Shown piece after piece: positions 3,591-28,905 of a stretch of DNA of 32,000 nt (within the stretch, counting starts at the first letter, position 1; the number at the start of each line of letters is the position of its first letter). This DNA is from Candidatus Methanoperedens sp. Lineage in GTDB: Archaea; Halobacteriota; Methanosarcinia; Methanosarcinales; Methanoperedenaceae. Below the pieces are notes generated by a model. It saw nothing but the letters and a program-made list of their open reading frames with translations. It was not told the origin of the DNA and ran no database searches. The translations under genes were made by a program, and so were the position numbers. The DNA is taken from the NCBI GenBank assembly GCA_041494705.1, contig JBGQBI010000001.1, forward strand, positions 90,001-122,000, in the 5' to 3' direction.

Positions 3591-3608
3591 GGATTGTAAA
3601 TAGCGCAA

Positions 3609-11553: not shown

Positions 11554-12075
11554 ATGTTAAAAACTGCCACAACTGTAGAAAAACCCATCCAGATAAGAGT
11601 GTTTCCACAGCGATTATTAAAGCCCGCTACTGCTGAAAAAGTGTTAAATGAAATTGATCAGGTAGAGGGGGTAATAAGAATGCTCATCAATGGAAAAAAC
11701 CTGCCCAGGAAAGTGACATCAGGACCAGGTACTGGCACAGATGTAAACCATCCTGATAGAATAATCATTCACGTAGGCGACTGCGCATTAGAATTGCACA
11801 TAATGGTTGGAGAGATAGTGGTCGAAGTGGAAGATGAAGGCGCTGTTGAGAACGTCAGAAAAGCATGCGAGAATGTACTTCCCTTCTCATTTGAACTCAA
11901 GCGGGGGCACTTCATAAAGAGAAGACCGACGCTGACCGATTACGGCAAGTACGGGTTCAGGAGCAAAACCGATGAAAGTATCAATCTTGAAGACAATCGC
12001 ATGCTTGGCTTAATAGACCCGCATACAAAAGTGGAAGGCAACATCTGTGTAATCGGAACAGATGGAAAAAAATAA
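11554..12075 (+). CDS. mcrD: methyl-coenzyme M reductase operon protein D homologue (stand-alone)
   Basis: IQIRVFPQRLLKPATAEKVLNEI..LPRKVTSGPGTG..VNHPDR..LPFSFELKRGHFIK..TLTDYGKYG matches the McrD family pattern. GGAG lies 5 nt upstream of the ATG. Confidence 0.8.
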   Translation: MLKTATTVEKPIQIRVFPQRLLKPATAEKVLNEIDQVEGVIRMLINGKNLPRKVTSGPGTGTDVNHPDRIIIHVGDCALELHIMVGEIVVEVEDEGAVENVRKACENVLPFSFELKRGHFIKRRPTLTDYGKYGFRSKTDESINLEDNRMLGLIDPHTKVEGNICVIGTDGKK

Positions 12076-12208
12076 TATTATTCATTTTTGGAGGTTGTAA
12101 GTTACATTATTAATAATGAAGCTACGCATCGTTAAAAATCGAAATGTTTAAAACCAATTATACCTTCTAATTAAAAAAAGGTTATAAACCCCAAAGAAAC
12201 GCTGGTGG

Positions 12209-13243
12209 ATACAAACGAGTAACGTACAAGCCTGTTATCAGTGCGGTAAATGCACATCTATTTGCCCGATGCGCCGAGTTTCAAAGACTTCGCCGCGCAG
12301 TTCAATTTACAATTCCAATGTCTACGGACTTCTGACAAAAGATATATGGACATGCCTTACGTGCGGATTATGTCCACAGGAATGTCCGCAGCAGGTGGAT
12401 TTCTTAAGCTTCATAAAAGAAGAACGTGAGGGGGGACAGCCGCTTGATGTTGTGCATCTTGGCGTTTTCACCGAGCTTGCTGAACTGAGTTCAAAACTCA
12501 ACGGGAGCAAAATCGAGAAAACCAATGATTCAAAATACGGTTACTTCCCCGGATGCGTGGATTCGCTGGGCTTGTTCTTACACGATGTCAAAACAGATTT
12601 CGGGGAGATTACAACCTCATCGCTTAAACTCCTTGATAAACTCGACATCAAACCCCAGGTATTGCAGATGAAATGCTGCGGCCATGATGCCCTCTGGCAG
12701 GGGAAAAAGGATGTTTTTGACAGGCTTAAAAATTATAATACAAAATACCTGAAAGATAGCGGCATCGATACCCTTGTAACAAGCTGTGCTGAATGTTACC
12801 GAACTTTTTCAAAAGATTACGAGCTTGGAATCAAGGTTATCCATATCTCCGAGCTTCTTGATAAACTCGGATTGAAGATAAACGCTGAAGTAACGTACCA
12901 TGACCCGTGCAGGCTCGGGAGACACATGGGCATTTACGATGCGCCGCGAAATGCCCTGACCTCCAACGGCGTCGTACTGATAGAAATGGAACATTCAAAA
13001 GACAAAGCCCTGTGCTGCGGCGTCAGCAGCTTCATGAACTGCAACGAGCAAACAAAAGCCCTTCGCATAGCCAGAATGGATGAAGCGGCGGCGACAGGAG
13101 CAAATACGCTGATAACAACCTGTTCAAAATGCCTTGCGCACTTCAACTGCCTGAAGAGTGAAAAAGATGCAGTGAAGAAATATGATTTTGATGTTGTTGA
13201 TCTTACAGTATTCCTTGCACGGCAACTGGAGGCGGGCAAATGA
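12209..13243 (+). CDS. HdrD-like fused Fe-S / double CCG-domain protein (HdrC+HdrB-like fusion)
   Basis: It has CLTCGLCPQECP and two CCG-type domains (GYFPGC..CCGHD; YHDPC..CCG..TCSKC). The frame is open upstream of ATG 12269 back to TAA 12185-12187 and encodes the first cluster motif CYQCGKCTSICP. No ATG/GTG/TTG lies there, so the start is set at ATA 12209. Confidence 0.8.
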   Translation: MQTSNVQACYQCGKCTSICPMRRVSKTSPRSSIYNSNVYGLLTKDIWTCLTCGLCPQECPQQVDFLSFIKEEREGGQPLDVVHLGVFTELAELSSKLNGSKIEKTNDSKYGYFPGCVDSLGLFLHDVKTDFGEITTSSLKLLDKLDIKPQVLQMKCCGHDALWQGKKDVFDRLKNYNTKYLKDSGIDTLVTSCAECYRTFSKDYELGIKVIHISELLDKLGLKINAEVTYHDPCRLGRHMGIYDAPRNALTSNGVVLIEMEHSKDKALCCGVSSFMNCNEQTKALRIARMDEAAATGANTLITTCSKCLAHFNCLKSEKDAVKKYDFDVVDLTVFLARQLEAGK

Positions 13244-13806
13244 TTAAAACAAGCGAGCTTGACCCGAATTTCAAATATGAGATAGCTAATGAGCCTGGCG
13301 GCGAAAATATCAAACGCTGTTTTAACTGCACAGGCTGTACAGTAGGCTGCCCGGTCACGGAAATTGATAAAGGTTACAACCCTCGCAAGATAATCCGGAA
13401 AGCCCTGCTTGGGATGCGCAACGAAGTCCTGACAGATGACTCGCTCTGGCTCTGCGCTTCCTGCTACATCTGCTACGAGCGATGCCCGCAGGACGTGAAG
13501 ATAACCGAGGTCATGGGCGCGATAAGAGCCATTGCCCAGCGTGAGGCAAAAGCAGGAAAGATCAAGCTCAACAATCCAAAACCACTTTTTGATAATCTTT
13601 TCATCGACTCGGTCAAGAACAACGGAAGATGGTACGAAGCCGGAGTAAGCGGAATGTTCATGCTCAAGACAAAAGGAATTGGCGGCGTTATTGGTTACGC
13701 CCCGATGGGAATGGAATTGTTCAAGAAAGGGAAACTGAGTATCCTGCCACACAGTATAAAAGGCAAAGACCAGATTAAGCGAATATTCGAGGAAGTGGAG
13801 AAATGA
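13240..13806 (+). CDS. hdrC: heterodisulfide reductase subunit C
   Basis: It has CFNCTGCTVGCP and CASCYICYERCP. ATGA overlap with the upstream gene. Confidence 0.9.
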   Translation: MIKTSELDPNFKYEIANEPGGENIKRCFNCTGCTVGCPVTEIDKGYNPRKIIRKALLGMRNEVLTDDSLWLCASCYICYERCPQDVKITEVMGAIRAIAQREAKAGKIKLNNPKPLFDNLFIDSVKNNGRWYEAGVSGMFMLKTKGIGGVIGYAPMGMELFKKGKLSILPHSIKGKDQIKRIFEEVEK

Positions 13807-14735
13807 AACTTGCGTATTATCCGGGCTGCACGCTGCACGGAACGGCGCGGGAGTATGACGCATCCACAAAAGCAGTAAGCAAAGCAGCAGGTATTGAGCT
13901 TACCGAGATAGAGGACTGGAACTGCTGCGGCGCGCTTGAGGCTATTTTCGATAAGGAGCTGTCCATGGGGCTTTCAGCAAGGAATAACGTGCTGGCGCAA
14001 AAGACAGGGCTTGACCTTGTGGTTCCGTGCAGCATATGCTCGCATAATCTCTCAAGGGCCGATAAAGCCATGAAAACCGATGATGCTTTCAGGGCGAAGA
14101 TCGAAAAGGCACTTGGAGAAAGTTATAAAGGCGTTAAGATAAAACATCTTCTTGATGTCATGGTAAACGATGTTGGGACTGAGGCATTAGCCAAAAAGTT
14201 CGTAAAACCATTAAAAGGCATCAAAGCTGTGCCATACTACGGCTGTCTCCTTGTCCGCCCTTCCGAAGTATCCAGATTCGATAACCCGGAAAATCCGACA
14301 TCCCTTGATAATCTTATAAAAGCCACAGGCGCAGAATGTCTTCCTTTTACCCAGAAAACAAAATGCTGCGGCGGGAATCTACTGATGAGCAAACAGGATT
14401 ATGCGTTCATACTCACGAAGAAGCTGTTCGATGAAGCAAAAGCAGCAGGAGCGAATTGCATCGTGGTCGCATGTCCCATGTGCCACATGCTGCTTGACGG
14501 CCAGCAGTCGATGGTGGAGAAGGCGCATAATACCGTCATCGGATTACCAATACTTTATTTCACACAGCTTATTGGTCTTGCTATGGGACTGAGCGAGAAA
14601 GAGCTTGAACTTGACAAGAATATGGTCTCACCTAAAAGTCTTATCGAATCTATCGGAAAACAGGACGGAAAGAAAGTAGAAACTCAAATTGAAAATAAGG
14701 CAGAACCGAAAGCAGAAGAAGAGGTGGCTAAATGA
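13803..14735 (+). CDS. hdrB: heterodisulfide reductase subunit B
   Basis: It has two CCG domains (YYPGC..NCCGA; PYYGC..KCCGG..ACPMCH). ATGA overlap with the upstream gene. Confidence 0.9.
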   Translation: MKLAYYPGCTLHGTAREYDASTKAVSKAAGIELTEIEDWNCCGALEAIFDKELSMGLSARNNVLAQKTGLDLVVPCSICSHNLSRADKAMKTDDAFRAKIEKALGESYKGVKIKHLLDVMVNDVGTEALAKKFVKPLKGIKAVPYYGCLLVRPSEVSRFDNPENPTSLDNLIKATGAECLPFTQKTKCCGGNLLMSKQDYAFILTKKLFDEAKAAGANCIVVACPMCHMLLDGQQSMVEKAHNTVIGLPILYFTQLIGLAMGLSEKELELDKNMVSPKSLIESIGKQDGKKVETQIENKAEPKAEEEVAK

Positions 14736-17700
14736 AAGGCTCGGTAGCAGTCGTCGGAGGCGGCATAGCAGGGATACAGGCAGCCCTTGACCTGGCGGAC
14801 AGCGGGTTCAAGACCTATCTCATAGAATCAAGACCGAGCATAGGCGGAACAATGTCGCAACTGGATAAAACCTTCCCGACCAATGATTGCGCCATGTGCA
14901 TCCTCTCACCGAAGCTTGTGGAAACGGCGAGGCATCCGAATATTGAGCTGCTATCATACAGCGATGTAAAATCCATATCAGGCAAAGCCGGGGATTTCAA
15001 AGTAAAAGTTGTTAAAAAAGCGCGGTACGTGGACGAAACGAAATGTACCGGATGCGGCACCTGCACAGAGAAATGCCCGACAAAAGTACTGGACGAATAC
15101 AATGCAGGTATGAGTAAGCGCAAAGCCATCTATATTCCTTTTGCACAGGCAATCCCCAGGGTTGCGACTATCGATGCTTCAAAATGCATATATCTCACAA
15201 AAGGCAAATGCGGCGTATGCAAGAAAGTATGCGGACCAAAAGCAGTGGATTATGAGCAGAAAGACAAAGAGGTCGAGCTGGACGTTGGTTCGGTCGTTCT
15301 TGCGACCGGCTTTAAACCTTTTGACCCTTCGGTACTGAAACAGTACAGGTTTGACCATCCTGATGTCATCACCTCGCTTCAGTTCGAGCGCCTCCTGAGT
15401 GCGAGCGGTCCGACGCAGGGGCATGTCACAAAGCAATCAGACGGCAAAGTCCCGAAGAAGATCGCTTTTATCCAGTGCGTGGGTTCGCGCAATCCGCGAA
15501 TAGGCAGGAAGCACTGCTCTTCTGTTTGCTGCATGTATGCTACAAAGGAATCCATAATCGCGAAAGAGCATGACTCCGAGCTTGATATTACCATATTCCA
15601 CATTGATATACGTGCATTCGGCAAGAACTTTGAAGAATTCTATAACCGAGCGCAGAGGGAGTACGGCATCAAATACATCAACTCCCGACCGCCTGAAGTT
15701 ATCGTTGACGCAAATAATGCTCTCTCTTTGAAATACGAGGATTTCAATACAGGCGACCTTAAAACCCAGAATTTCGATATGGTAATCCTTTCCATAGGGC
15801 TTGACCCTGCGGATTCTACCCGGACGCTGGCGCAGTCGTCAGGTATCGCGCTTGACGATTTCGGTAACATCGTCACAACCGTTGAGAATCCTGTGGAGAC
15901 AAGCGTTCCCGGCATCTATGTTTGCGGTGTCGCCCAGGGACCAAAGGATATTCCTGACACCGTAGCGCAGGCAAGTGCAGCCGCGGCAAAGGCTGCCGCA
16001 CTTTTATCTGCTGAGCGCGGAACGCTGATAAAAGAGAGAAAGTTCCCGGATGAGAAGCCCCTCTCACCTGAGCCCAGGATAGGTGTATTCGTCTGCCACT
16101 GCGGGATTAACATAGGCAGCGTGGTCAATGTCCCGAACGTGGTAGAGTATGCCAAGACTCTTCCGAACGTGGCGCACGCACAGGAAATGCTGTATGCATG
16201 TTCCTCAGATTCGCAGGTTACGATTAAGGAAACCATAGCAAAGAATAACCTGAACCGCGTAGTGGTGGCGTCGTGCACGCCGCGCACACACGAGCCTCTG
16301 TTCCAGAATACCTGTCGTGAGGCAGGGCTTAATCCCTATCTTTTCGAACTCGCCAATATCCGCGAACACTGCTCCTGGGTACATATGAAGGAAAAGGAGA
16401 AAGCCACTGAAAAGGCGAAGGGAGTCGTGCAGATGGCCGTGGCAAAATCAGCCCTTTTCCAGCCCCTGTACAAGCAAAAAGTATCTCTTATCAACAAGGC
16501 GCTGGTGCTCGGAGGCGGCGTAGCTGGCATGACCGCGGCGCTTGATATTGCGAATAACGGTTATAGCGTGACACTCGTCGAGAAAGAAACAGAACTTGGC
16601 GGGATGCTTAGAGAAATGACAGAGTTGTACGACGGAAAGAAGCCCTCCGATGTATTAAAAGAACTCATCCGGAAGGTCAATGATAATAAAAATATCGTAG
16701 TCGTAAATGAGGCGAAACTCATCAAGGTCGAAGGCTATCTTGGTAACTTTAAGGGAATCATCCAGGCAAAAGGAAAAGAGAAGACTGTGGATTTCGGGGC
16801 TGCTGTTGTTGCAACAGGCGCACGGAACTTTGAGCCTGCCGGATTATTCAACTACGGAAAGGATTCACGCGTAGTTACGCAGGCACAGCTTGAGAAAATG
16901 CTCGGTAATAGTATCAGCGCAAAGAATATCACAATGATACAGTGCGTAGGAGCCCGCAATAAAGAAAGAGAGTATTGCGGGAGAACATGCTGCATCGATG
17001 CAGTAAAGAATGCTATAAGGATTAAAAAAGCAAACAGCAGTGCCAACGTCTATGTCCTGTACCGCGACATGAGGACGTACGGGGTCATGGAAAGGCTGTA
17101 CGAAGAAGCCAGAGACCTTGGCGTAATATTCATCAAATACGATGCTGAGAAACTGCCCGCAGTTCAGGATGGAGCTGTAACAGTTCACGATTCCATGCTC
17201 AACGAAGACATTGAAATCGCATCAGACCTCGTGGTGCTGAGCACTCCTTTAGTGGCCGGAGAGAACGAGGAAATAAACCAGTTGTTCAAGATACCTCTTG
17301 ATAAGAACAAATTCTTCCTCGAAGCGCATCCAAAACTGCGGCCTGTGGATTTTGCCACGGACGGTGTTTTCCTGTGCGGAAGTGCGCAGGCGCCCAAGCT
17401 CATGGATGAGGCAATATCGCAGGCAAGCGCGGCTGCCTCCCGTGCATGTACAATCCTGTCCCGCAAGTTCATAGAAACAGAGGGTGCGGTATCAATTGTC
17501 AACGAGGCAAAATGCATAGGCTGCGGGACATGCGTTACAATGTGTCCGTATAATGCGCCTTCATTGTATGATGTGACCGTGAAAGTGGAAGAGGTCACAT
17601 ACACGACAAAGAAATCAAAAATAAACCCGGCTGCCTGCAAGGGATGCGGTTCATGTGCCGCCGCTTGTCCCGCCGGAGCGATAACTGCCCAGCATTTCTC

Positions 17701-17791
17701 TTCAAAAGAGATAGGCGAGGCAATAGATGCTTTTGATAAAGGTGTCCGGAGCATTTCGTTAGAGAAGGGTGTCGTGGAGGTGACAATATGA
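14732..17791 (+). CDS. hdrA: HdrA-family flavoprotein, 1019-aa tandem (two FAD-binding modules)
   Basis: Module 1 has VVGGGIAGIQAALDLA, FPTNDCAMCIL and the inserted ferredoxin CTGCGTCTEKCP. Module 2 starts near nt 16080 with VFVCHCGINIG, then LGGGVAGMTAALDIA and the C-terminal CIGCGTCVTMCP..CKGCGSCAAACP. Confidence 0.9.
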   Translation: MKGSVAVVGGGIAGIQAALDLADSGFKTYLIESRPSIGGTMSQLDKTFPTNDCAMCILSPKLVETARHPNIELLSYSDVKSISGKAGDFKVKVVKKARYVDETKCTGCGTCTEKCPTKVLDEYNAGMSKRKAIYIPFAQAIPRVATIDASKCIYLTKGKCGVCKKVCGPKAVDYEQKDKEVELDVGSVVLATGFKPFDPSVLKQYRFDHPDVITSLQFERLLSASGPTQGHVTKQSDGKVPKKIAFIQCVGSRNPRIGRKHCSSVCCMYATKESIIAKEHDSELDITIFHIDIRAFGKNFEEFYNRAQREYGIKYINSRPPEVIVDANNALSLKYEDFNTGDLKTQNFDMVILSIGLDPADSTRTLAQSSGIALDDFGNIVTTVENPVETSVPGIYVCGVAQGPKDIPDTVAQASAAAAKAAALLSAERGTLIKERKFPDEKPLSPEPRIGVFVCHCGINIGSVVNVPNVVEYAKTLPNVAHAQEMLYACSSDSQVTIKETIAKNNLNRVVVASCTPRTHEPLFQNTCREAGLNPYLFELANIREHCSWVHMKEKEKATEKAKGVVQMAVAKSALFQPLYKQKVSLINKALVLGGGVAGMTAALDIANNGYSVTLVEKETELGGMLREMTELYDGKKPSDVLKELIRKVNDNKNIVVVNEAKLIKVEGYLGNFKGIIQAKGKEKTVDFGAAVVATGARNFEPAGLFNYGKDSRVVTQAQLEKMLGNSISAKNITMIQCVGARNKEREYCGRTCCIDAVKNAIRIKKANSSANVYVLYRDMRTYGVMERLYEEARDLGVIFIKYDAEKLPAVQDGAVTVHDSMLNEDIEIASDLVVLSTPLVAGENEEINQLFKIPLDKNKFFLEAHPKLRPVDFATDGVFLCGSAQAPKLMDEAISQASAAASRACTILSRKFIETEGAVSIVNEAKCIGCGTCVTMCPYNAPSLYDVTVKVEEVTYTTKKSKINPAACKGCGSCAAACPAGAITAQHFSSKEIGEAIDAFDKGVRSISLEKGVVEVTI

Positions 17792-18291
17792 ATGAGGAAG
17801 CGGTCAAAGCGAACCCCGCGCAGGCGGGGAACGGCTGGGAACCCAATATCCTCGCTTTCTGCTGCAACTGGTGTTCGTATGCGGGGGCAGACCTTGCGGG
17901 AGTAAGCCGTTTCCAGTATCCCCCGACAGTCAAGATTTTGAGAGTGATGTGTTCAAGCAGGGTCGAACCTTCGTTCATCCTGAAAGCATTAAATGACGGA
18001 GCTGACGGCGTTCTGATAGCCGGTTGCCACATAGGTGATTGCCACTATATCGACGGCAACAGGAATGCCGAGGTCAGGATTAATAATACTAAAAAAGCGC
18101 TGGCAAAACTGGGATTTGATAAGAGGCTTCGGCTTGAGTGGATATCAGCCAGCGAAGGATTGCGATTCTCAGAAGTTATTCGAGATTTTACAGAAGAGAT
18201 TAAAAAATTGGGTCAAAACCCGGTCTTTGATGAACCTGTCAAAAAAGACCGGAGAACATTAGGTTCATCAAACAAGGAAGTGAAGAAATGA
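17788..18291 (+). CDS. mvhD: MvhD-like [2Fe-2S] protein (copy 1)
   Basis: It has [38 protein letters not shown] overlap with the upstream gene. Confidence 0.9.
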   Translation: MNEEAVKANPAQAGNGWEPNILAFCCNWCSYAGADLAGVSRFQYPPTVKILRVMCSSRVEPSFILKALNDGADGVLIAGCHIGDCHYIDGNRNAEVRINNTKKALAKLGFDKRLRLEWISASEGLRFSEVIRDFTEEIKKLGQNPVFDEPVKKDRRTLGSSNKEVKK

Positions 18292-20297
18292 GCGATATTA
18301 AAGGTACTGAAAATAAAGGTGCCGTTCCAATAGATAACGACGAAAAGCGGGTAGGTGTGTTTGTTTGCGAATGCGGTGTGAATATCGGAGGCGTAGTTAA
18401 CACAAAAGCTGTGGCTGAATATATCGGAACTCTGCCGGGCGTGAAAGTAACCTCCGTGAATAAATTCACATGCTCTGACTCAGGCCAGGCTGATATCCAG
18501 TCGAAAATAAAAGAACATAATCTCAACCGCGTTGTAGTAGCGGCTTGTTCGCCAAAGACACATGAACCAACATTTCGTGCTTGCATCGAGCAGATGGGAC
18601 TGAACCAGTACTTCCTTGAATTCGTAAATATCAGAGACCACTGCTCATGGATACACATGTGGGAGAAGGAGAAAGCCACCGAGAAGGCAAAAGACCTTAT
18701 CCGCATGGGAGTTGAGCGCGCAAAGCTGCTTGAACCGCTTCAGGCAAGCGAAGTCCCTGTGACTGATAAGGCGCTTGTTGTGGGCGCCGGCGTTGCAGGA
18801 ATGCAGGCTGCTCTTGACCTTGCTGATATGGGTTTCCAGGTCTATCTTGTTGAGAAGGAACCCTCTATCGGCGGCAGGATGGCAAGGTTTGACAAGGTTT
18901 TCCCAACCAATGACTGTTCTATTTGCATCCTCGGTCCAAAGATGGTAGAGGTTGCAAGGAACAAGAATATCAAGATAATGAGTTATTCGGAAGTGAAAGC
19001 GGTTGAAGGGTATGTGGGTAACTTTAACGTGAAAATCGAGCACAAACCAAGATACCTCGATATTGAAAAATGCACAGGCTGCGCAAAATGCAGCGAGGTC
19101 TGCCCTGTCGAAGTGCCTTATGACTTTAACGAGGGCTTCGGGACGCGAAAAGCTATATTTGTCCCCTTCCCGCAGGCAGTCCCACTTCGCGCAGTCTTAG
19201 ACAAAGAGAACTGTATTTCATGCAAAGCGTGCGCAAAGGCATGCGAACGCGGCGCAATCAATTACGATATGCAGCCGAGTTTTACGGATGTCAATGTGGG
19301 CGTCATCATCGGCGCAGTCGGATTCAAGACTTATGACCCTGAACCCAGACACGATTTCGGCTACGGGTTATATGATAACATCATAACAGCTATGGAATTT
19401 GAGCGGCTTCTTAACGCAGCAGGTCCCACAGGCGGGCATGTGGTAAGACCGTCTGACTGCAAAGAACCGATACGCGTTGGATTTGTGAACTGCGTTGGTT
19501 CACGCGATAAGAACACCAACATTTACTGCTCAGGCGTATGCTGCATGGTTACCATAAAGAACGCGCAGCTCCTTAAAGAGAAGCGCCCTGAAACTGACCA
19601 GACGATAATGTATATAGATATCAGGACACCCTTCAGAGGCTACGAGGAATCATATAACAGGTCGCGAAACCTTGGCGTGAAATTCCTGCGCGGAAGACCC
19701 GTGGAAGTGAAAGAAGACCCTGTTACCAAGAATATCAAGGTGCGGGTTGAGGATACACTTGCAAATGAGATACGAAATCTCGAATTTGATCTGCTTGTCC
19801 TTGCAACCGGCATTGTCCCGAATGAAGGAATTAACCAGATACAGCAGTTATTGAAATTATCAAAAGCAGCGGATGGCCTGCTTATGGAAGCGCATCCTAA
19901 ATTGAGACCTGTGGATACGACTATCGATGGCGTGTTCCTCGCGGGTTGCGCTTCAGGGCCAAAGGATATTCCCTATGCAGTGTCGCAGGGAAGCGCATGC
20001 GCAGGCCGCGCCACGATTCTTCTCAAAAATAAGAAAGCCATAACGGAAGGCATCACAGCCGTTGTGAATCCTGATGTATGCGTGGGATGCGGCGTGTGTA
20101 TACCCATGTGCCCGTTCCAGGCAATAAAGATGGATGAGAAAGAAGGCAAGGCAAATGTGATGAAGGCGCTGTGTAAAGGCTGCGGGACATGCGTAACAGC
20201 CTGCCCCACAGGCGCCCTGGAGCAGAGCCACTTCAAGAATAACCAGATCCTTGCGCAGGTCAAGAACGTGTTCAGGTTCCAGGAGGTAGCGGCATGA
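18288..20297 (+). CDS. hdrA: heterodisulfide reductase subunit A (canonical architecture, 669 aa)
   Basis: It has [38 protein letters not shown], the inserted [23 protein letters not shown] and the C-terminal [24 protein letters not shown]. Confidence 0.92.
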
Positions 20298-20755
20298 GTG
20301 CAGAAGCTGTTGCGGCTCAGCCTGCTCCTAAGAGTAATGGCTGGGAACCCAAAATCGTGGCGTTCTGCTGCAACTGGTGCTCATACGGAGGCGCCGACAG
20401 CGCAGGCATGGGCAGGTTCCAGCAGCCGGCATCGACAAGAATCATTCGCGTTATGTGCTCGGGACGAATAGACCCACTGCATGTGTTCAACGCATTTCTG
20501 GAAGGTGCAGATGCTGTGCTTGTCACGGGATGCCATATAGGCGATTGCCATTATGTAAACGGGAACGATAAGACCAAGATTAAATACAAATTCCTTGAGA
20601 ACATGACGAGAGAGTTGGGAATTGAGAAGGAAAGGCTGCAACTGAACTGGATATCAGCAAGCGAGGGAGAAAAGTTTGCCAATTTCATCCGTGATGTTAC
20701 AGAGCAGATAAAAAAACTCGGACCAAGTCCGCTTAAACCCGAGGGGGTGGCGTAA
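20294..20755 (+). CDS. mvhD: MvhD-like [2Fe-2S] protein (copy 2)
   Basis: It has [34 protein letters not shown]. By eye it is roughly half identical to copy 1. Confidence 0.9.
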
Positions 20756-21906
20756 TGCAGAACGGCGAAATGTTCGTTGGCTGGTCAACGAAAGAGGATG
20801 TCAGGAAACGAGGCGGCTCAGGCGGTCTTGTTACGTCCGTACTCGCGGCTGCGCTTGAGAAGAAATTGGTCGATGCTGTCGTGGTATTAAAGAAAATCAA
20901 CGAGTTTGAAGCGGTACCGATAATAACCTCTGATGTGAATGAGGTGCTGAACTCGGCAGGCTCTTTGCACTCAGTTCCGAGCAACTTTGCAAAACTCATC
21001 GCCAATAAGGATATGAAAGTGGCCCTTCCGGCGAAGGGTTGCGATGTGCGCGGGGTTATCGAGCAGAGCAAGCGCAATGCCGTAAATCTTGATAATACTT
21101 TTACAATCGGTCTTAACTGCGGCGGGTCAATGCACCCAGTCGTGACGCGTGAGATGCTTGAAGTCATGTACAAGATCAAGCCAGAAGATGTTCACGGCGA
21201 AGAGATCGAGAAAGGAAAACTCATTTTCGAGACAAAGGATGGAAAAGAGCACGCAATAACCATTGACGAGCTTGAAGAGAAAGGTTATGGACGCAGGGAG
21301 AGCTGCCGGTATTGCACGATCAAGATACCGAACAACGCCGACCTTGCGTGCGGGAACTGGGGCGTGACCGGAGACCTTGTTGGCAAAGCCACTTTTGTAG
21401 AGATAAATTCAGAAAAAGGAGCAAAGCTCCTTCAAAATGCCATCGACGCCGGATATGTGCAGGTGCAAAAGCCTGATGAGAAAGGTGTTGCGGCGCGCGC
21501 CAAGATTAAAGGCGTTATGGAAAGTCTTGGCAAGAAATGGAAGGATAAGGTATTTGTTCCAATCGATAACAGGCTTGAGTATTTCAGGAAAGAGCTTGAG
21601 CACTGCATCGACTGCGGCGCCTGCAAAGCAGTGTGCCCCACATGCTCATGCGGGGATGTTTCAAAATGCACCGAATTCCACTTCCGCGGCGATGCTTACA
21701 AGATGTCCATGTATCATCTGGTGCGCTTTTTGCACCTTGCGGATTCATGTATCGGGTGTGGGCAGTGCAGCGATGTGTGCCCTGTTGATATTCCGCTCAC
21801 AAGATTATATAGGCGCTTTGCAAATCCTGTGCAGGAGCAGTTAAAGTATGAACCTGGCATGGATATGCGAAAGCCCCCTTATTTTGAGGTGAAGTTAAAT
21901 GAGTGA
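20755..21906 (+). CDS. FrhB/FdhB-family (F420-binding type) Fe-S flavoprotein with a C-terminal 2x[4Fe-4S] domain
   Basis: It has the GGSGGLVTSVLAAALEKKLVDAVVV N-terminus typical of the FrhB/FdhB/FpoF family, CRYCTIKIPNNADLACGNWG, and then CIDCGACKAVCPTCSC..CIGCGQCSDVCP. TAATG overlap with mvhD. Confidence 0.8.
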   Translation: MQNGEMFVGWSTKEDVRKRGGSGGLVTSVLAAALEKKLVDAVVVLKKINEFEAVPIITSDVNEVLNSAGSLHSVPSNFAKLIANKDMKVALPAKGCDVRGVIEQSKRNAVNLDNTFTIGLNCGGSMHPVVTREMLEVMYKIKPEDVHGEEIEKGKLIFETKDGKEHAITIDELEEKGYGRRESCRYCTIKIPNNADLACGNWGVTGDLVGKATFVEINSEKGAKLLQNAIDAGYVQVQKPDEKGVAARAKIKGVMESLGKKWKDKVFVPIDNRLEYFRKELEHCIDCGACKAVCPTCSCGDVSKCTEFHFRGDAYKMSMYHLVRFLHLADSCIGCGQCSDVCPVDIPLTRLYRRFANPVQEQLKYEPGMDMRKPPYFEVKLNE

Positions 21907-22303
21907 GGATTTTAGTTTGATTAAACCGCAGATGAAAATAGATGAACGCGGATTTGCTCTGAATTTATGTGAGTCTCTGGAGAAAAAACACGGAGATGCA
22001 GAGGCAAAGGGAGGTTTTTCAGGTTTATCTCCTTTGCGTCTTTTTAGTGAAATTCATGATAAAAATCTGAATGGCGATTCCTTGGATCAGGAGCGTTTAG
22101 CCAAAGAAGACCTAGAAGAACTGAGAAAATCGTCAGGATTAACTCCTTTGCATCCTGGTGGCGAGATTCATAATAGGAATTTGAATAGTGTGTCTCCGGA
22201 AGAAGGATTTCCAGCAGCAGAGAACATAGAAACGCTGATAAATTATTCGGGATTAACTCCTTTGCGGCCTGGTGGCGAGATTTACAAAAGAGGTTTGATT
22301 TAA
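21899..22303 (+). CDS. 134-aa ORF composed of repeat modules; protein-coding status doubtful
   Basis: It fits exactly between its neighbours: an 8-nt overlap upstream, and its stop directly abuts the next ATG. Its sequence consists of modules found elsewhere only in intergenic DNA, plus three ~55-65-nt direct repeats. Confidence 0.3.
   Translation: MSEDFSLIKPQMKIDERGFALNLCESLEKKHGDAEAKGGFSGLSPLRLFSEIHDKNLNGDSLDQERLAKEDLEELRKSSGLTPLHPGGEIHNRNLNSVSPEEGFPAAENIETLINYSGLTPLRPGGEIYKRGLI
22019..22302 (+). repeat. three direct repeats at ~115-nt spacing (GGATTAACTCCTTTGCGGCCTGGTGGCGAGAT-type)
   Basis: The units start near 22019, 22134 and 22249. They encode GLSPLRLFSEIHDKNLN / GLTPLHPGGEIHNRNLN / GLTPLRPGGEIYKRGL. 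The core CCTTTGCGG..TGGCGAG resembles the CCTTTGCGGTGAGCG of element A. Confidence 0.8.
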
Positions 22304-23719
22304 ATGACCGATAATGTTTATTCAACAATATGCCCGGGCTGCAATTTTGGCTGCGGATTATATATTCGAGAGAACGGAAAACTTGAAGTGGATTTCAGGA
22401 AATCCTCTCCTGCCAATGCCGGGAAGCTTTGCAGGTTCGGAATGAGCCTCTTCCGCCTCTATACACCTGTTAAATCGATGGTGGATGGAAAGGAGACCTC
22501 GCCTGAAGAAGCTGCAAAGGAAGCAGCTAAGAGAATATCGGCAAGCAAGGGTTCCACAGCTTTCCTCTCGTTCGGCAACACCACAAGCGAGGAGCTTCTT
22601 GCATTCCGGAAAGTTGCTGAATCCTATTTATGCACGGGAGCAAATTTCGAGGAGCTTCCAAAAGACACATATCAGACCCTGAGCGTGGGAATACCATATA
22701 TTGAAATCGAAGCTGCAAAACATATCGTGCTCTTTATCGACCCATATGAGCAGTATCCGCTGATAGTCCGGCGCCTGCTTTCAGCCAGGAAGAAAGGAGC
22801 GAAGATAACTTCGGTGTGGTGGAAGGATTTACCCTTAGCAGATGAGAACATCCGACCTGCTGATGTTTCAAAGTTGCAGCTCACAAAAGATTCGCTTGTT
22901 ATTGCTGATTTTCACCCGCTTTCGGATATTGAGCAGGTTAAGAGCGTACTGTCTCTTGTAAAGAACGCAGGCGCTAAAGTAACATTCCTCAAGCCTTTTG
23001 TGAATTCAACAGGTGCATATTTATTGTATAAGGATGCCAAGCAAAAATCACTGGCGCAACTGGTTGAGGATATAAATAAAGGGACGATAAAGACATTGTT
23101 CTGTCTCGAATCCGACCCGTCCGCGCTGATACCATCTGAGACTCTTTCAAAACTCACGAATCTTATTGTCCAGACAGGGCAGGCAGTTTCGGCAAATGCA
23201 AATGTGGTAATAGCCCATGAGCCGCTGTATAAGAAGAGAGGCACTCTCATCAACAACGAGGGCAGGGCACAGGCGCTTGGCGGCGCGGGAACGAGCGGGC
23301 TTGATGCGCTTGGAATCATAGCTGGCGCCAAATTTGATTTCAATGTTCTTCATGAATCCGTTAAAAAGTCTATTGGAATTGCGTCAGTCGATGAATTCAC
23401 AATCCCGAAATATGATAGACCTGCTTACGGCGCGATACAGGCAGCGGCGAAACCGGCTGAAGCCAAAACGGCACTTGTAAGCGTGTACAACCCGTTCATG
23501 TGGTTTAATCTGGGAGACGATAACGATTTTGTGGAATTGAATCTGAATGTTGTGAGGGCGCTCAAGCTCCTGAAGGGCGGGACACTCAAGATAAAGTCTA
23601 ACGGCAGTGCCATTGAAAAGAAGTTCAAGGTGGCGCCTGTGCAGGATAATATTTTGCTGGCAGGCAGGAAGTTTGGGATTGAAAAGGGGATTCTCACGCC
23701 GGTTGAGATTTCGAGGTGA
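22304..23719 (+). CDS. compact molybdopterin-oxidoreductase-family protein (FdhA/FwdB-like N-terminus plus C-terminal MopB beta-barrel-like domain)
   Basis: CPGCNFGCGLY..KLCRFG is the N-terminal 4-Cys cluster site. It also has FLSFGNTTSEELLAFRKV, GAKITSV, ANVVIAHEPLYKKRGTLINNEGRAQ and the C-terminal DFVELNLNVVRALKLLKGGTLKIKS. At 471 aa it is clearly shorter than typical FdhA. Confidence 0.7.
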   Translation: MTDNVYSTICPGCNFGCGLYIRENGKLEVDFRKSSPANAGKLCRFGMSLFRLYTPVKSMVDGKETSPEEAAKEAAKRISASKGSTAFLSFGNTTSEELLAFRKVAESYLCTGANFEELPKDTYQTLSVGIPYIEIEAAKHIVLFIDPYEQYPLIVRRLLSARKKGAKITSVWWKDLPLADENIRPADVSKLQLTKDSLVIADFHPLSDIEQVKSVLSLVKNAGAKVTFLKPFVNSTGAYLLYKDAKQKSLAQLVEDINKGTIKTLFCLESDPSALIPSETLSKLTNLIVQTGQAVSANANVVIAHEPLYKKRGTLINNEGRAQALGGAGTSGLDALGIIAGAKFDFNVLHESVKKSIGIASVDEFTIPKYDRPAYGAIQAAAKPAEAKTALVSVYNPFMWFNLGDDNDFVELNLNVVRALKLLKGGTLKIKSNGSAIEKKFKVAPVQDNILLAGRKFGIEKGILTPVEISR

Positions 23720-23724
23720 TAGGT

Positions 23725-24012
23725 ATGGCAGAAGAGATAGCTATTATAAAAGCGGAAGCAGCGCCGGAAGTTAAAGCTGAAGCGCCAAAAGCAAAGGAAG
23801 CCGACCCGAACAAGGAGTTTGTGGACGGCATTATGGGTGAGATGGCTCTAAAAGGCGCATCAAAAAAGAGGCTTGTCAAGAAGCTGGCTGAGCAGTATGG
23901 TTTTGATAAACAGAAGGTGCTGTTTAGGCTAAGGCGAGCGCTGATTACGGAGAGGTATGCCGGAGCATGCGGAAGCGGGGCATTGAGTTCAGTTGGCTGC
24001 GCCGCGCCCTGA
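23725..24012 (+). CDS. 95-aa Lys/Ala/Glu-rich protein of unknown function
   Basis: The ATG at 23725 is preceded by GGTGA with 5-nt spacing. It reads MAEEIAIIKAEAAPEVKAEAPKAKE..KRLVKKLAEQYGFDKQKVLFRLRRAL. The last ~10 codons lead into, and the stop overlaps, the left edge of repeat element A copy 2. Confidence 0.45.
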   Translation: MAEEIAIIKAEAAPEVKAEAPKAKEADPNKEFVDGIMGEMALKGASKKRLVKKLAEQYGFDKQKVLFRLRRALITERYAGACGSGALSSVGCAAP

Positions 24013-24013
24013 C

Positions 24014-24145
24014 ACCGCGCCGCCGGGTTCGTACGAGTTCGTATCAGTTCGTTGTTTTTTATAAAAGATTGCTGCTGGGCTTTGCGCCCTTTGCGGTGAG
24101 CGTACACTTGTGGTTACATCGGTTTCCTATCGGCGCCACAACTGT
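24014..24145 (+). repeat. element A copy 2 (full length, ~132 bp)
   Basis: The sequence is ..GGGTTCGTACGAGTTCGTATCAGTTCGTTGTTTTTTATAAAAGATTGCTGCTGGGCTTTGCGCCCTTTGCGGTGAGCGTACACTTGTGGTTACATCGGTTTCCTATCGGCGCCACAACTGT. Confidence 0.9.
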
Positions 24146-24179: not shown

Positions 24180-25073
24180 TCAACGATTCCTAAGATACTT
24201 CGTATTTTCTTTCAGGTATCCTTTGAAAAACCATTGAAGAAAAATCATCTCATCCTTTTTTATCTGAGACCGCTCCAGAGCGCTATAATAACCTGCTCTT
24301 TTTTCATAAGGTATATTGAGCATAGGGAAGCCATGCCTATTTAAAACAAAGTTCATCATCAGCCTGCTTATTCTTCCGTTCCCGTCTGCGAAAGGATGAA
24401 TAGTTACAAGTTTCAGATGGACAAGCGCCGCAAGTTCTAAGGTGTGCATTTTGTCTTTATTTTTGCGATACCATCTGAAAAAATCCATTAGCAGAGGATA
24501 TATTTCTGCGGGAAAAGGCGGTGTAAATCTACTTCCTGCAATCGTCACCTGATGCTGCCTTATCATCCCTGCTATGTCTTTTTTCGTGTTCTCAAATAAT
24601 TTTTTGTGAAAATACAATATGAGATCAAGCGATAAGTCCTTTTTGCAATCCAGCGCCTCATAAAATACGCTCCGGTGCGCTTCCGCCTCTTTTACATCGC
24701 GCATAGGTTTTGCATTCGGGGTTATGCTTTTTTCGAGTAGCAAAGAGGTTTCCCTGAATGTCAGGGTTGAGCCTTCTATCCTGTTCGTATCATAAGTGAA
24801 TTTGATAGCAAAGTTCTCCAATTCTTTTTCCTGCGCCGATGGAGGGATTGTTTTTCCCTGCGCTGAATATTCTTCTTTTATTTTGTCAAAAAGGTCAAAC
24901 CATTTCTCCCTGTACATCTCAGAAACAAACTGTCTTTTCAATTCTTCGATGTTTTGCGGCAACGTTTTTCCAAGGTATTTTTCCTTCTTTTCCACCCTGC
25001 CGTTTTCACGGAAGCTGTGCTCGATATAATAATATACCTGTTTGCCTATCGTCTTTTTTCTAATTGCTACCAT
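24180..25073 (-). CDS. Fic-family protein (AMPylase-type) with an internal inhibitory motif
   Basis: It has the Fic motif HPFADGNGRISR. Upstream, TNRIEG fits the (S/T)xxxE(G/N) auto-inhibition motif. Confidence 0.9.
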   Translation of the reverse strand: MVAIRKKTIGKQVYYYIEHSFRENGRVEKKEKYLGKTLPQNIEELKRQFVSEMYREKWFDLFDKIKEEYSAQGKTIPPSAQEKELENFAIKFTYDTNRIEGSTLTFRETSLLLEKSITPNAKPMRDVKEAEAHRSVFYEALDCKKDLSLDLILYFHKKLFENTKKDIAGMIRQHQVTIAGSRFTPPFPAEIYPLLMDFFRWYRKNKDKMHTLELAALVHLKLVTIHPFADGNGRISRLMMNFVLNRHGFPMLNIPYEKRAGYYSALERSQIKKDEMIFLQWFFKGYLKENTKYLRNR

Positions 25074-25086
25074 AAGACTATATTAT

Positions 25087-25130
25087 CCCTACAAGATTAT
25101 AAGTTTTATGGTTTTTTATAAATTGTAGGG
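25087..25130 (-). promoter_or_regulatory. putative fic promoter: a TATA-like box bracketed by an 8-bp inverted repeat
   Basis: The minus strand reads CCCTACAAtttataaaaaaccataaaacttataatcTTGTAGGG, ending 14 nt upstream of the fic ATG. The function is inferred. Confidence 0.3.
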
Positions 25131-25165
25131 GTAAGTAACCAAGGGTATGCCACGCATACCCTAAC

Positions 25166-25306
25166 ACTGCACCGCCGGGTTCGTACAAGTTCGTATCAGT
25201 TCGTTGTTTTTTATAAAAAATTGTCGCCGGAGCTTTGCGCTCTTCGCGCCCTTTGCGGTGAGCGTGGACTTGTGGTTGCATCGGTTTCCTATCGGCGCCA
25301 CAACTG
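25166..25306 (+). repeat. element A copy 3 (full length, ~140 bp, same orientation)
   Basis: It is near-identical to copy 2 over the GTTCGTA x3, TTTTTTATAAAA, CTTTGCG and ..CATCGGTTTCCTATCGGCGCCACAACTGT segments, with one extra CTCTTCGCG unit. The hairpin GGGTATGCcacGCATACCC (25143-25161) precedes it. Confidence 0.9.
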
Positions 25307-25379
25307 TTGAAATAATTTAAGTAATACGTTTGCCAGCCCTTAGTATTAATTAAATATATCCTGACACATAAAGCATGAT

Positions 25380-25639
25380 GTGCCATACGAAATCATAATC
25401 CCCGATAAAATTCAGAGGATCATCGATAAGAAGTGTGATAATCACTTAAAAAAGCGGCTGTTCACAAAATTACTAAAACTCGAAAACGCTCCGCAATCAT
25501 ACGCCAAACCCTTACGCGTTCCTCTCGCAGGCATCTGGGAAATCTATTTTGAAAAGAGATGGCGTGTGCTCTTGAAATAGATGAAAATAACAAATCAATC
25601 ATTGTTGTTGGATTCAAACACAAAGATGAAATGACTTAG
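25380..25639 (+). pseudogene. RelE/ParE-family toxin gene interrupted by a 1-nt frameshift
   Basis: Frame 1 reads MPYEIIIPDKIQRII..LAGIWEIYFEKRWRVLLK and stops at 25578-25580. The expected C-terminus EIDENNKSIIVVGFKHKDEMT continues from 25574 in another frame to TAG 25637-25639. One extra T at 25572-25573 would restore ..RVLFEIDENNK... Confidence 0.65.
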
Positions 25640-28896: not shown

Positions 28897-28905
28897 TAAA
28901 AACAC

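Follow-up and report, generated by a model that had tools for sequence, protein, structure and literature searches.

The operon that we analyse here is an already described soluble heterodisulfide reductase operon of Methanoperedens and not a new discovery. The cluster is treated in PMC4683180 (Arshad 2015), PMC5690323 (Berger 2017), PMC9012536 (Chadwick 2022) and PMC12054007 (Lyu, Yu & Lu 2025), the last including an 'expanded' form with extra HdrA and HdrD, and also in PMC13079737 (2026, Nat Commun). Moreover, the functional proposal in PMC4683180 and PMC12054007 is the same as ours, and the novelty that the first-pass annotation had implied does not survive, cluster and F420-linked confurcating role having been published in these papers between 2015 and 2026. 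Among characterised enzymes, ElpABC-HdrABC, whose FdhA homologue contains no molybdopterin, carries out an F420H2-dependent bifurcation (PMC12350162), and HdrA2B2C2 is reported to bifurcate electrons from F420H2 (work cited in PMC6019823).

The window, by which we mean the whole 32,000-nucleotide stretch of DNA that was analysed, lies on the chromosome of a Candidatus Methanoperedens (ANME-2d), and the operon occupies positions 12215-24012 of its plus strand. Eleven tightly coupled genes follow one another in the order hdrD-like, hdrC, hdrB, fused double hdrA, mvhD, canonical hdrA, mvhD, fdhB/elpB-like, repeat ORF, cofactor-less MopB and small ORF. All ORFs were found, in content, order and strand, where the first-pass annotation had put them, and the profile check that it had proposed gave Pfam, NCBIfam and PDB assignments that agree with its labels. 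Its claim of coupling also holds, since neighbouring genes overlap or abut, with junctions of -4 nt six times and then -1, -8, 0 and +5 nt, and a GGAGGTG-like Shine-Dalgarno sequence precedes every start. With a single promoter-like element ahead of them and a T-run behind, the eleven genes, real and intact, most likely form one operon; judged by synteny, the arrangement is not due to chance, because at least 13 Methanoperedens species show the same order, as do more distant lineages. The upstream element CGAAATGTTTAAAACC is likely the operon promoter and the T-run TTGTTTTTTAT likely its archaeal terminator, the next gene downstream running convergent, and the palindrome ATTATTAATAAT upstream of the promoter is a possible regulator binding site. 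Two starts had to be moved: the first frame does open at 12188, as annotated, but homology places the start at 12215, and the last gene, although present, most likely starts at ATG 23725 and not at GTG 23716. Similarly, mcrD does lie upstream but is placed by synteny outside the operon unit, because no more than 6 of 13 species have it next to the cluster and because a conserved promoter-like element separates it from the hdrD-like gene. The presence of fwdBD and cdhA in the window was confirmed by assignment, and no hydrogenase subunit occurs among the ORFs assigned within it (MvhA and MvhG are absent), as had been claimed.

Table 1. Features of the operon and its surroundings, in window positions.
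Feature	Positions	Strand	Basis or remark
mcrD	11554-12075		
Perfect palindrome ATTATTAATAAT	12106..12117	.	kept in upstream alignment of 13 Methanoperedens species; duplicated in some
Archaeal BRE/TATA-like element CGAAATGTTTAAAACC	12140..12155	+	near-invariant in 13 species, mcrD upstream or not
hdrD-like, 342 aa from ACG	12215..13243	+	N-terminal 2x[4Fe-4S] ferredoxin motif; Pfam CCG x2
hdrC, 188 aa, 2x[4Fe-4S] subunit	13240..13806	+	TIGR03290 HdrC, E 1e-26, under equivalog cut-off
hdrB, 310 aa	13803..14735	+	TIGR03288 HdrB, E 9e-59
Fused 'type II' hdrA, 1019 aa	14732..17791	+	three-segment match to HdrA 5ODC_A
mvhD1, 167 aa, [2Fe-2S] adaptor	17788..18291	+	Pfam FlpD, E 4e-53
Canonical full-length hdrA, 669 aa	18288..20297	+	end-to-end with 5ODC_A
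mvhD2, 153 aa, adjoins fdhB	20294..20755	+	Pfam FlpD, E 4e-51
fdhB/elpB-like, 383 aa	20755..21906	+	Pfam FrhB_FdhB_N, FrhB_FdhB_C; PDB matches
SSGLTPL-repeat ORF, 134 aa	21899..22303	+	three copies of 38-aa unit, direct repeats 114 nt apart
ElpA-like MopB, 471 aa, without molybdenum ligand	22304..23719	+	sole Pfam hit Molybdop_Fe4S4
Small basic three-helix (ITERY) protein, 95 aa	23725..24012	+	conserved '...KRALITERY' core
T-run TTGTTTTTTAT	24052..24062	+	40 nt past last stop codon, read from sequence
fwdB/fwdD	27254-28905	-	confirmed
cdhA, partial	30559-31998		confirmed

What could such an operon do? Our preferred reading, to which we give a probability of roughly 60%, is that it encodes an F420-linked confurcating heterodisulfide reductase of Methanoperedens, with a non-catalytic MopB protein, that expanded from a core like that of Methanosarcina mazei. 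The operon would then probably connect ferredoxin and the CoM/CoB thiols with coenzyme F420. From the homology with ElpABC-HdrABC and FdhAB-MvhD-HdrABC, we expect hydride to be exchanged between F420 and the FAD of the FdhB/ElpB-like subunit, while one branch would pass HdrC on its way to the non-cubane clusters of HdrB at the CoM-S-S-CoB / CoM-SH + CoB-SH couple and might also reach the fused HdrD-like protein, the MopB protein acting, like ElpA, as a non-catalytic scaffold. In a methane oxidiser the direction would be that of confurcation, reduced ferredoxin and CoM-SH/CoB-SH together reducing 2 F420, and the F420H2 would then be re-oxidised by the membrane-bound Fqo complex. To our knowledge, no enzyme of this composition has been purified, nor do we know of any biochemistry for this form. 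Of the characterised complexes, the closest, ElpABC-HdrABC (Nomura 2025), had been overlooked by the first-pass annotation.

The hdrD-like product is predicted to be a fused HdrC+HdrB-type thiol/disulfide module; its best NCBIfam model is the C-terminal part of TfrB, far under cut-off. As start codon, the gene has a clade-specific ACG in the window's clade, where 7 of 13 related species have ATG instead; its first Cys motif, which sits 5' of the first ATG, shows purifying selection. The hdrB product contains two complete CCG motifs, read from the sequence, and scores 199 bits against TIGR03288 (cut-off 345), with an SdhE model scoring nearly equal. None of the operon's Hdr proteins reaches its NCBIfam equivalog cut-off. 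In view of these low scores, and of the likeness of HdrB to SdhE and of the HdrD-like protein to TfrB, CoM-S-S-CoB is the presumed substrate of both disulfide modules. As for the flavin modules, the earlier count of three HdrA FAD modules was right, but the two halves of the fused HdrA make an asymmetric pseudo-dimer that has a single full set of accessory domains: its residues 6-371, 447-600 and 846-999 match residues 147-509, 3-156 and 502-647 of 5ODC_A, and its first half is a thioredoxin-reductase domain that carries the Cys197 motif and into which a ferredoxin domain is inserted. The PDB holds no structure of a fused HdrA. The canonical HdrA has all four domains, its residues 18-663 matching 2-651 of the same chain with E 5e-260.

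Outside Methanoperedens, the expanded layout is found in three MAGs (loci L084, L087 and L090) and in Syntropharchaeia (L086), where the two halves of the fused hdrA are encoded apart, by genes for 432 and 571 aa; the MopB proteins of the more distant expanded loci are 41-48% identical to that of the window. Methanosarcina mazei, Argoarchaeum and Methanimicrococcus have a 'minimal' form of six genes, and their MvhD is 62-75% identical to MvhD2 as against 53-56% to MvhD1. The two adaptors belong to distinct orthologous groups, and mvhD2 is the orthologue of the one MvhD that the minimal clusters have. Since this orthology ties the minimal-cluster MvhD to MvhD2, it indicates which genes were added: the ancestral core would be hdrCB, fused hdrA, mvhD2, fdhB and MopB, as in Methanosarcina mazei, and the Methanoperedens form would have gained mvhD1, canonical hdrA, the hdrD-like gene and the small conserved protein. 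In particular, the evidence points to MvhD1 and HdrA1 as gains of the expansion. The added genes make up a second flavin/disulfide module without its own donor module. An adaptor of the MvhD1 type comes after fused HdrA in many lineages, and Methanoperedens further carries the lineage-specific repeat ORF.

Could the FdhB-like and MopB-like proteins instead be a genuine formate dehydrogenase, coupling formate/CO2 to heterodisulfide and ferredoxin as the Fdh-Hdr-Fmd system of Methanospirillum hungatei does? The pair has its homologues in FdhAB. In PMC13079737 the last genes of the cluster are annotated as fdhAB, and formate production is suggested; PMC9012536 discusses formate confurcation in ANME and also reports that ANME FdhA homologues retain a cysteine ligand. 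However, the MopB protein, at 471 aa, is shorter than FdhA, which has about 675-690 aa; its best PDB matches, ElpA 8RVU_D and FdhA 9T1S_L, are limited to the N-terminal ~170 residues, and the Pfam Molybdopterin domain is not among its hits at E <= 0.01. It retains the N-terminal [4Fe-4S] cysteines C10, C13, C17 and C43, but Thr122-Tyr123 align, with low confidence around this position, to the Sec/Cys-His molybdenum ligand of formate dehydrogenases, and Phe45 (C+2) replaces their conserved lysine. Its AF2 model has a pLDDT of 41. AlphaFold3 models in PMC12054007 likewise argue against a formate dehydrogenase, and the nearest relative with a solved structure, ElpA, lacks formate dehydrogenase activity (PMC12350162). 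Because dyad and lysine are lost in all 20 of 20 representatives of its small family, the protein is most likely, to judge from these residues, a non-catalytic scaffold like ElpA that keeps only the N-terminal [4Fe-4S] cluster; electron entry by a 'MopB-linked' route, which the first-pass annotation had allowed, is contradicted by the same replacements, and we regard a formate dehydrogenase as very unlikely. The other alternative of that annotation, an F420-linked bifurcating or confurcating reductase, is the best reading, since the FrhB-family subunit, predicted to carry an F420/FAD site and FeS clusters, matches FdhB (7BKB_E, 9e-99; 9T1S_M, 1e-93) and ElpB (8RVU_E, 2e-92) over its full length. 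Our tests thus support F420 and speak against formate.

The genes might also encode two separate enzymes and no super-complex, namely an Elp-Hdr-like F420-dependent complex of fused HdrA, MvhD2, FdhB-like, MopB-like and HdrBC, and an enzyme of MvhD1, canonical HdrA and HdrD-like with another donor or another disulfide/thiol substrate. This would fit the six core genes standing alone in the minimal clusters, the distinct groups of the two MvhD, the TfrB rather than HdrD score of the HdrD-like protein, and the recurrence of fused HdrA, MvhD1-type and HdrD-like modules without FdhB or MopB in Thermoplasmata, Methanomassiliicoccales and bacteria. We nevertheless consider it unlikely: the added genes sit inside the core operon, translationally coupled between fused hdrA and mvhD2, the added module lacks a donor subunit of its own, and the expanded order is kept as a block across distant lineages. 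Somewhat unlikely, in our judgement, is that the two small ORFs are not enzyme subunits at all, the repeat ORF being a functionless spacer or orphan and the ITERY protein a DNA-binding autoregulator acting at the conserved palindrome 5' of the promoter. The repeat ORF is, by comparison of the loci, Methanoperedens-specific and fast-evolving: it is missing in two Methanoperedens species (L006 and L010) and in all other lineages compared, matches nothing in Pfam or NCBIfam, has just 2 relatives in the database, and is 39-51% identical between species (the near-identical L014 aside) where neighbouring proteins reach 82-97%. Yet it is open in 10 of 11 related loci reaching the MopB gene or beyond (nine examined species, with the window's own contig, L001, as tenth row), at 96-163 aa, and despite indels keeps its coupled start, MSE(D/Y)/MIED, overlapping the fdhB stop, and the SSGLTPL motif, which is confined to it. 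The ITERY protein is basic, with three helices (core pLDDT 70-81 in AF2) behind a disordered, Ala/Lys/Glu/Pro-rich N-terminus, and its best fold matches are helix-turn-helix or homeodomain proteins, but none is significant (all E > 0.5). It has 204 database relatives, is kept after the MopB gene in Methanoperedens and is present in L084, L086, L087 and L090; it is absent from the minimal clusters compared. Since it tracks the MopB gene even without nearby Hdr genes, as in the ANME-1c locus L088, a protein partner fits better than an operon regulator. In the window's genome its C-terminus looks frameshifted.

How, then, does the F420-linked operon compare with known systems? The type II HdrA-FdhB-Molybdop cluster of ANME/Methanosarcinales (PMC12054007) is the same cluster in the same genus with no difference in kind, sharing hdrBC, fused hdrA, mvhD, fdhB and a distinct Cys-less Molybdop clade, and its expanded form carries extra type I hdrA and hdrD, as here. 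Details beyond the available portions of PMC12054007, PMC4683180, PMC5690323 and PMC9012536 are the ACG start of the hdrD-like gene, the ITERY protein, the Methanoperedens-only repeat ORF and the finding that MvhD2 and the MvhD of the minimal clusters are orthologues. MvhAGD-HdrABC (5ODC) has the HdrABC core and MvhD adaptor in common with our operon, its HdrA matching the canonical one end to end, but has the MvhA and MvhG hydrogenase subunits. HdrA2 of Methanosarcina acetivorans (Yan, Wang & Ferry 2017, cited in PMC6019823) is the best NCBIfam model of both HdrA and both MvhD, all scores under cut-off; it is a single HdrA with a C-terminal MvhD fusion that needs no FdhB/MopB subunits, whereas our operon has two stand-alone mvhD genes and one of its HdrA proteins is a double fusion. 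FdhAB-MvhD-HdrABC-Fmd of Methanospirillum hungatei (7BKB-7BKE) has the same architecture of the electron-input arm, and no PDB entry matches our FdhB-like subunit better than its FdhB, but its FdhA is a catalytic molybdo/tungstoenzyme of 686 aa, whose ligand residues are lost in our MopB protein, and it includes Fmd, whereas our operon holds no fmd/fwd, fwdBD being located on the opposite strand at a distance of 3 kb. Of the characterised enzymes, the closest is ElpABC-HdrABC of Methanothermobacter marburgensis (8RVU, 8RVV, 8RVY), likewise hydrogenase-free, with an FdhB-type F420H2-oxidising subunit and an MvhD-type adaptor, the canonical HdrA matching its HdrA with E 2e-257. However, ElpA has 342 aa, belongs to a different clade from our MopB protein and is about 20-24% identical to it; Elp-Hdr has one canonical HdrA, the fused HdrA, HdrD-like protein and second MvhD being present only here, and the elp genes of M. 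marburgensis lie apart from hdrABC, whereas here all stand in one operon, whose physiological direction, in a methanotroph, would be reversed.

Our analysis confirms an unbroken chain of open reading frames on the + strand, from 12188 to 24012, in which profile searches recognise, in order, a two-CCG-domain protein (hdrD-like), HdrC, HdrB, a 1019-aa double (fused) HdrA, MvhD, a 669-aa HdrA and a second MvhD, then an FrhB/FdhB-family protein, a 134-aa ORF without a family, a 471-aa MopB Fe4S4 protein and a small ORF without a family. Six of the junctions are 4-nt overlaps, the others being overlaps of 1 or 8 nt, abutting ends or a 5-nt gap, and a GGAGGTG-like Shine-Dalgarno sequence lies upstream of every start. 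The first-pass annotation had claimed this chain, without a hydrogenase and with mcrD, fwdB/fwdD and cdhA in the same window, and all of this is borne out: the genes lie where it placed them, cdhA being partial, the profile assignments agree, and no hydrogenase family occurs among the assigned ORFs of the window. The synteny comparison that it proposed shows the gene order recurring. A scan with the fused HdrA, taking one genome per species, returned at least 13 Methanoperedens-family loci with the common order hdrD-like, hdrC, hdrB, fused hdrA, mvhD, hdrA, mvhD, fdhB-like, MopB-like, small ORF, and the order is found in other lineages as well. Three public assemblies, NCBI GCA_041489935.1 among them, contain the identical contig, and the closest relatives of its MopB protein all carry the name Candidatus Methanoperedens.

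The conserved BRE/TATA-like element and palindrome upstream of the operon are kept with or without mcrD nearby, a T-run lies 3' of the last stop codon, and the gene beyond it runs convergently. From these elements we predict a transcription unit running from ~12100 to ~24060, with mcrD outside it. Membership of mcrD in the operon is ruled out, since it adjoins the operon in no more than 6 of the 13 Methanoperedens species and the conserved promoter lies between it and the hdrD-like gene. The palindrome, present twice in several of the 13 species, may be an operator for an unrecognised regulator.

Of the other neighbours, the Fic/DOC-family gene directly downstream weakly matches 'mobile mystery protein B' and adjoins a 102-aa ORF without a family; these two genes may form a pair of toxin-antitoxin-like or mobile type. 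Further on, fwdB reaches 438 bits against NCBIfam TIGR03129, with no Pfam match at E <= 0.001, and no other fwd subunits adjoin it and the fwdD-like gene. The NucS-C-domain protein and the DNA methylase next to it could be a restriction-modification-like pair.

Features of the operon and its surroundings, in window positions unless a residue range or another locus is named (L084, L087 and L090, metagenome-assembled genomes; L086, Syntropharchaeia; L088, ANME-1c Methanoxibalbensis)
Feature	Position	Strand	Length	Remarks
NucS-C-domain protein; N6/N4 DNA methylase	2628-4658	-; +	326 aa; 305 aa	adjoining
mcrD	11554-12075			no mcrABG in the window; between divergent TFIIE-alpha gene and hdr operon
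Palindrome ATTATTAATAAT	12106-12117			upstream of operon; conserved in 13 species
BRE/TATA-like element	12140-12155			upstream of operon; nearly invariant in upstream alignment of 13 Methanoperedens species
hdrD-like gene, 5' region	12188-12270	+		ACG at the start position
Fused HdrA, thioredoxin-reductase domain	residues 6-371			FPTNDCxMC (Cys197) motif; inserted ferredoxin domain
Fused HdrA, N-terminal FeS domain	residues 447-600
Fused HdrA, second flavin domain	between 447-600 and 846-999			divergent
Fused HdrA, C-terminal ferredoxin domain	residues 846-999
SSGLTPL-repeat ORF	21899-22303		134 aa	three 38-aa units, SSGL(T/S)PL core
Small ITERY protein	23725-24012	+	95 aa	ATG 23725; after MopB gene
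Its C-terminus	23960-24012			...YAGACGSGALSSVGCAAP, against family consensus ...YAAAHAEAGH
Fic/DOC-family gene; ORF without a family	24180-25386	-	297 aa; 102 aa	adjoining
fwdD-like; fwdB; RnfB/CdhE-N-terminal-like FeS protein	27254-29364	-	143 aa; 406 aa; 152 aa	together
Split hdrA halves	L086:3032-6046			adjacent genes
Small-protein homologues	L084:11473-11679; L086:11434-11634; L087:11383-11598; L090:9941-10129; L088:11607-11864

Is this complex linked to F420 or to formate? The FrhB-family protein has full-length homology to FdhB of the solved Fdh-Hdr complexes and to ElpB of the Methanothermobacter marburgensis ElpABC-HdrABC enzyme (E 9e-99, 1e-93 and 2e-92), its residues 10-377 aligning with residues 7-375 of ElpB (8RVU_E, E 2e-92). 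As an ElpB-type subunit it is predicted to oxidise F420H2 and to carry FAD and four [4Fe-4S] clusters. For the MopB protein, matches to formate dehydrogenases and to ElpA are confined to the first ~170 residues. Its four FeS cysteines at the N-terminus do not vary among close relatives, the fourth being only nearly invariant in the wider 32-sequence alignment. At the Sec/Cys-His position of FdhA it has Thr122-Tyr123 (HMMER alignments to 9T1S_L, 7QV7_S and 7BKB_D, and the 32-sequence alignment), and the dyad is absent from all 20 of the family representatives aligned with ElpA-like and FdhA-like sequences. Phe45, the second residue past the fourth cysteine, takes the place of the FdhA lysine; the aligned motif reads CRFG in the window protein and C[RK]FG in almost every family member, whereas four of the seven FdhA-length sequences have CxKG. 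Cys110 is not conserved and its position differs from the ligand site. The TIGR01591 score is 37 bits against a cut-off of 666, and Molybdop_Fe4S4 is the sole passing Pfam family, with no full-length formate dehydrogenase alpha match that includes Molybdopterin and Molydop_binding.

With both dyad and lysine absent, a catalytic formate dehydrogenase is rejected. The F420-linked, hydrogenase-free bifurcating or confurcating heterodisulfide reductase proposed in the first-pass annotation is upheld by the FdhB/ElpB match, and its MopB-linked alternative falls with the ligand residues. The case against a molybdenum ligand is made from sequence because the AF2 model of the MopB protein with 20 close homologues was unusable (mean pLDDT 41). 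ElpA is the best single-sequence PDB match; at 471 against 342 aa the window protein keeps more of the MopB body than ElpA, a difference that the AF2 model is too poor to judge. The family is small, with only ~27 clusters among 1.84 billion representatives in an exhaustive profile-free search, and has members also in Methanosarcina, Argoarchaeum and Syntropharchaeia. Our reading of these residues agrees with Lyu et al. (PMC12054007); it is at odds with the statement of a retained cysteine ligand in PMC9012536, and with the fdhAB/formate reading of PMC13079737.

Turning to the Hdr modules, the 669-aa HdrA, with four of four domains, is matched from end to end by the crystallised HdrA 5ODC_A (E 5e-260). 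The 1019-aa HdrA, with two GxGxxG/FAD regions, matches the same chain in three segments, and this piecewise mapping makes it an internal pseudo-heterodimer with one full set of accessory domains only. Chadwick et al. (PMC9012536) describe complementarity of this kind for fused and tandem HdrA; in the window protein, however, it is the first half that lacks the N-terminal domain. The Syntropharchaeia locus has the halves as separate genes (432 and 571 aa), aligning to residues 5-428 and 444-994 of the fused protein; an 864-aa GltD-like/pyridine-nucleotide-disulfide-oxidoreductase/CCG protein precedes them. A PDB search with the fused HdrA found no fused chain among solved structures. Full-length relatives (~50-57% identical), each with an MvhD gene after it, are widespread in the scanned loci, their hosts being Bathyarchaeia, Jordarchaeia, Asgard archaea, Thermoplasmata, Methanomassiliicoccales and several bacterial phyla, and several loci carry two to four tandem copies beside HdrD-like, HdrCB or distant FrhB-like genes. 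Two complete CCG cysteine sets are present in HdrB and likewise in the HdrD-like protein, the latter also having a 2x[4Fe-4S] motif. All Hdr proteins score below their NCBIfam equivalog cut-offs (HdrB 199 against 345, HdrC 93.5 against 160), and the best NCBIfam score of the HdrD-like protein is to TfrB. With CCG and FeS motifs intact, HdrB and HdrC belong to the expected fold family; because of these scores we infer rather than assign the Hdr substrate.

Gene callers start the HdrD-like protein at Met28 (324 aa), losing its first CxxCxxCxxxCP motif. Seventeen codons upstream, 7 of the 13 species have an ATG (MSNVQxCYQCGKCTSICP); the codon there is ACG in the window and in its five closest relatives, with a Shine-Dalgarno-like GGTGG 6-7 nt upstream as in the ATG species. 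Distant lineages have ATG, GTG or TTG starts 5' of the cysteine motif. Could the upstream part be a pseudogene remnant? The perfectly conserved cysteine motif and mainly synonymous changes rule this out: within the ACG clade the 17 codons differ by ~10 synonymous and 4 non-synonymous changes, with all cysteines kept. Given this conservation and the TAA immediately 5' of the ACG in one species of the clade, the data suggest a stable non-canonical ACG start and truncated public 324-aa gene calls, the most economical reading being initiation at ACG 12215 to give 342 aa.

Two small proteins also appear to belong to the operon. The repeat ORF is confined to Methanoperedens, inserted between two genes whose ends abut or overlap in every lineage outside the genus. 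It stays open, with its conserved coupled start, at 96-163 aa despite 39-51% identity, is absent from two species, and diverges far more than its neighbours; a protein search with it returned only itself and one relative. It is probably translated. Neither small ORF has a family in Pfam or NCBIfam. The ITERY protein has 204 database relatives, the informatively named ones coming from Methanoperedens-family or other archaeal metagenome assemblies, bar one Acidobacteriia bin. A disordered Ala/Lys/Glu/Pro-rich N-terminus, which in Methanoperedens varies over ~25-160 residues, precedes a conserved core (...LKGxxKKRL...KRALITERY), predicted as three helices (pLDDT 70-81); the protein is basic, and a Foldseek search of the model against PDB gave generic three-helix matches only, all with E > 0.5. 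Since a different frame still gives the family's consensus C-terminal ending, this genome seems to carry a small frameshifting indel. Homologues of 62-85 aa lie 3' of the MopB gene in every expanded cluster (described below) and are absent from the minimal ones; in ANME-1c Methanoxibalbensis a homologue lies 3' of a MopB gene without Hdr genes. The distribution suggests that the protein is probably a partner of the MopB protein, the alternative being a small regulator.

How is the operon put together? Clusters outside Methanoperedens were retrieved with MopB family representatives as entry points, since most loci from the fused-HdrA scan were bacterial or came from Bathyarchaeia, Asgard or Thermoplasmata, and the ANME-2a and Methanolobus clusters were missing from it. 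Methanosarcina mazei, Argoarchaeum ethanivorans and Methanimicrococcus blatticola have a minimal set of six genes (hdrC, hdrB, fused hdrA, mvhD, fdhB and MopB), and three metagenome-assembled genomes and the Syntropharchaeia locus have the expanded form. The MvhD of the minimal clusters is the orthologue of MvhD2, with 62-75% identity against 53-56% to MvhD1. Comparison of the two gene sets, together with this orthology, indicates that the expansion consists of MvhD1 and canonical HdrA, placed after the fused HdrA, and of the 5'-terminal HdrD-like gene. In Bathyarchaeia, Asgard archaea, Thermoplasmata and bacteria, fused HdrA is followed by an MvhD of the MvhD1 type, often with an HdrD-like gene or hdrCB after it. 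Core and added module are clearly split, and the core is present in a cultured and genetically tractable organism, Methanosarcina mazei.

A flavin and a disulfide site are present in the added module, which lacks its own donor subunit. Such a make-up suits the serial 'two bifurcations' idea of PMC12054007, and suits equally a second independent enzyme. A fuller picture, which we consider rather unlikely as a whole, would be one asymmetric super-complex with two flavin sites in series: MvhD1 would wire the fused HdrA to the canonical HdrA and to the HdrD-like protein as second disulfide site, with no link to the donor, the ITERY protein would be a structural subunit on a cofactor-less MopB scaffold, and the SSGLTPL-repeat protein would serve as a flexible tether in Methanoperedens.

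By what route reduced ferredoxin and CoM/CoB thiols are re-oxidised in anaerobic methane oxidisers without a hydrogenase is an open bioenergetic question, for which this operon is the main candidate. Our analysis adds no new system; the gain is independent evidence from sequence, in favour of F420 and against formate. What remains of value is the biochemistry of the expanded complex and its small unannotated components, a literature search having found no purification study of the cluster. The two conserved small proteins and the mis-called start codon should be included when the complex is purified or modelled.

The cluster is real but already known, since earlier papers describe it. Arshad et al. 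2015 (PMC4683180) propose that a Methanoperedens HdrABC-FrhB confurcates the electrons of ferredoxin and those of CoM-SH/CoB-SH onto F420 and report no mvhABG cluster detected in the M. nitroreducens MPEBLZ genome, Berger et al. (PMC5690323) note the cluster with frhB and two mvhD, and Chadwick et al. (PMC9012536) catalogue HdrA paralogues and FdhAB-like genes across ANME. The novelty implied in the first-pass annotation does not survive comparison with PMC12054007, where the expanded form is already published. The type II HdrA-FdhB-Molybdop cluster described there has an HdrA with two thioredoxin-reductase domains from fusion of two HdrA classes. The window shares the fused HdrA, with hdrB, hdrC, mvhD and fdhB in one overlapping chain; its MopB protein fits the distinct Molybdop clade without the Mo/W-coordinating cysteine, and its additional type I hdrA (the canonical, 669-aa one) and hdrD-like gene make it an exact fit to the expanded form. 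Unlike MvhAGD-HdrABC, it lacks the [NiFe]-hydrogenase subunits MvhA and MvhG among the window ORFs. The closest characterised enzyme, overlooked by the first-pass annotation, is ElpABC-HdrABC (PMC12350162; PDB 8RVU), with an F420H2-oxidising ElpB, an MvhD-like ElpC and a molybdopterin-free ElpA, a truncated FdhA without the molybdopterin-binding region; the enzyme carries out F420H2-dependent reduction of CoM-S-S-CoB and ferredoxin.
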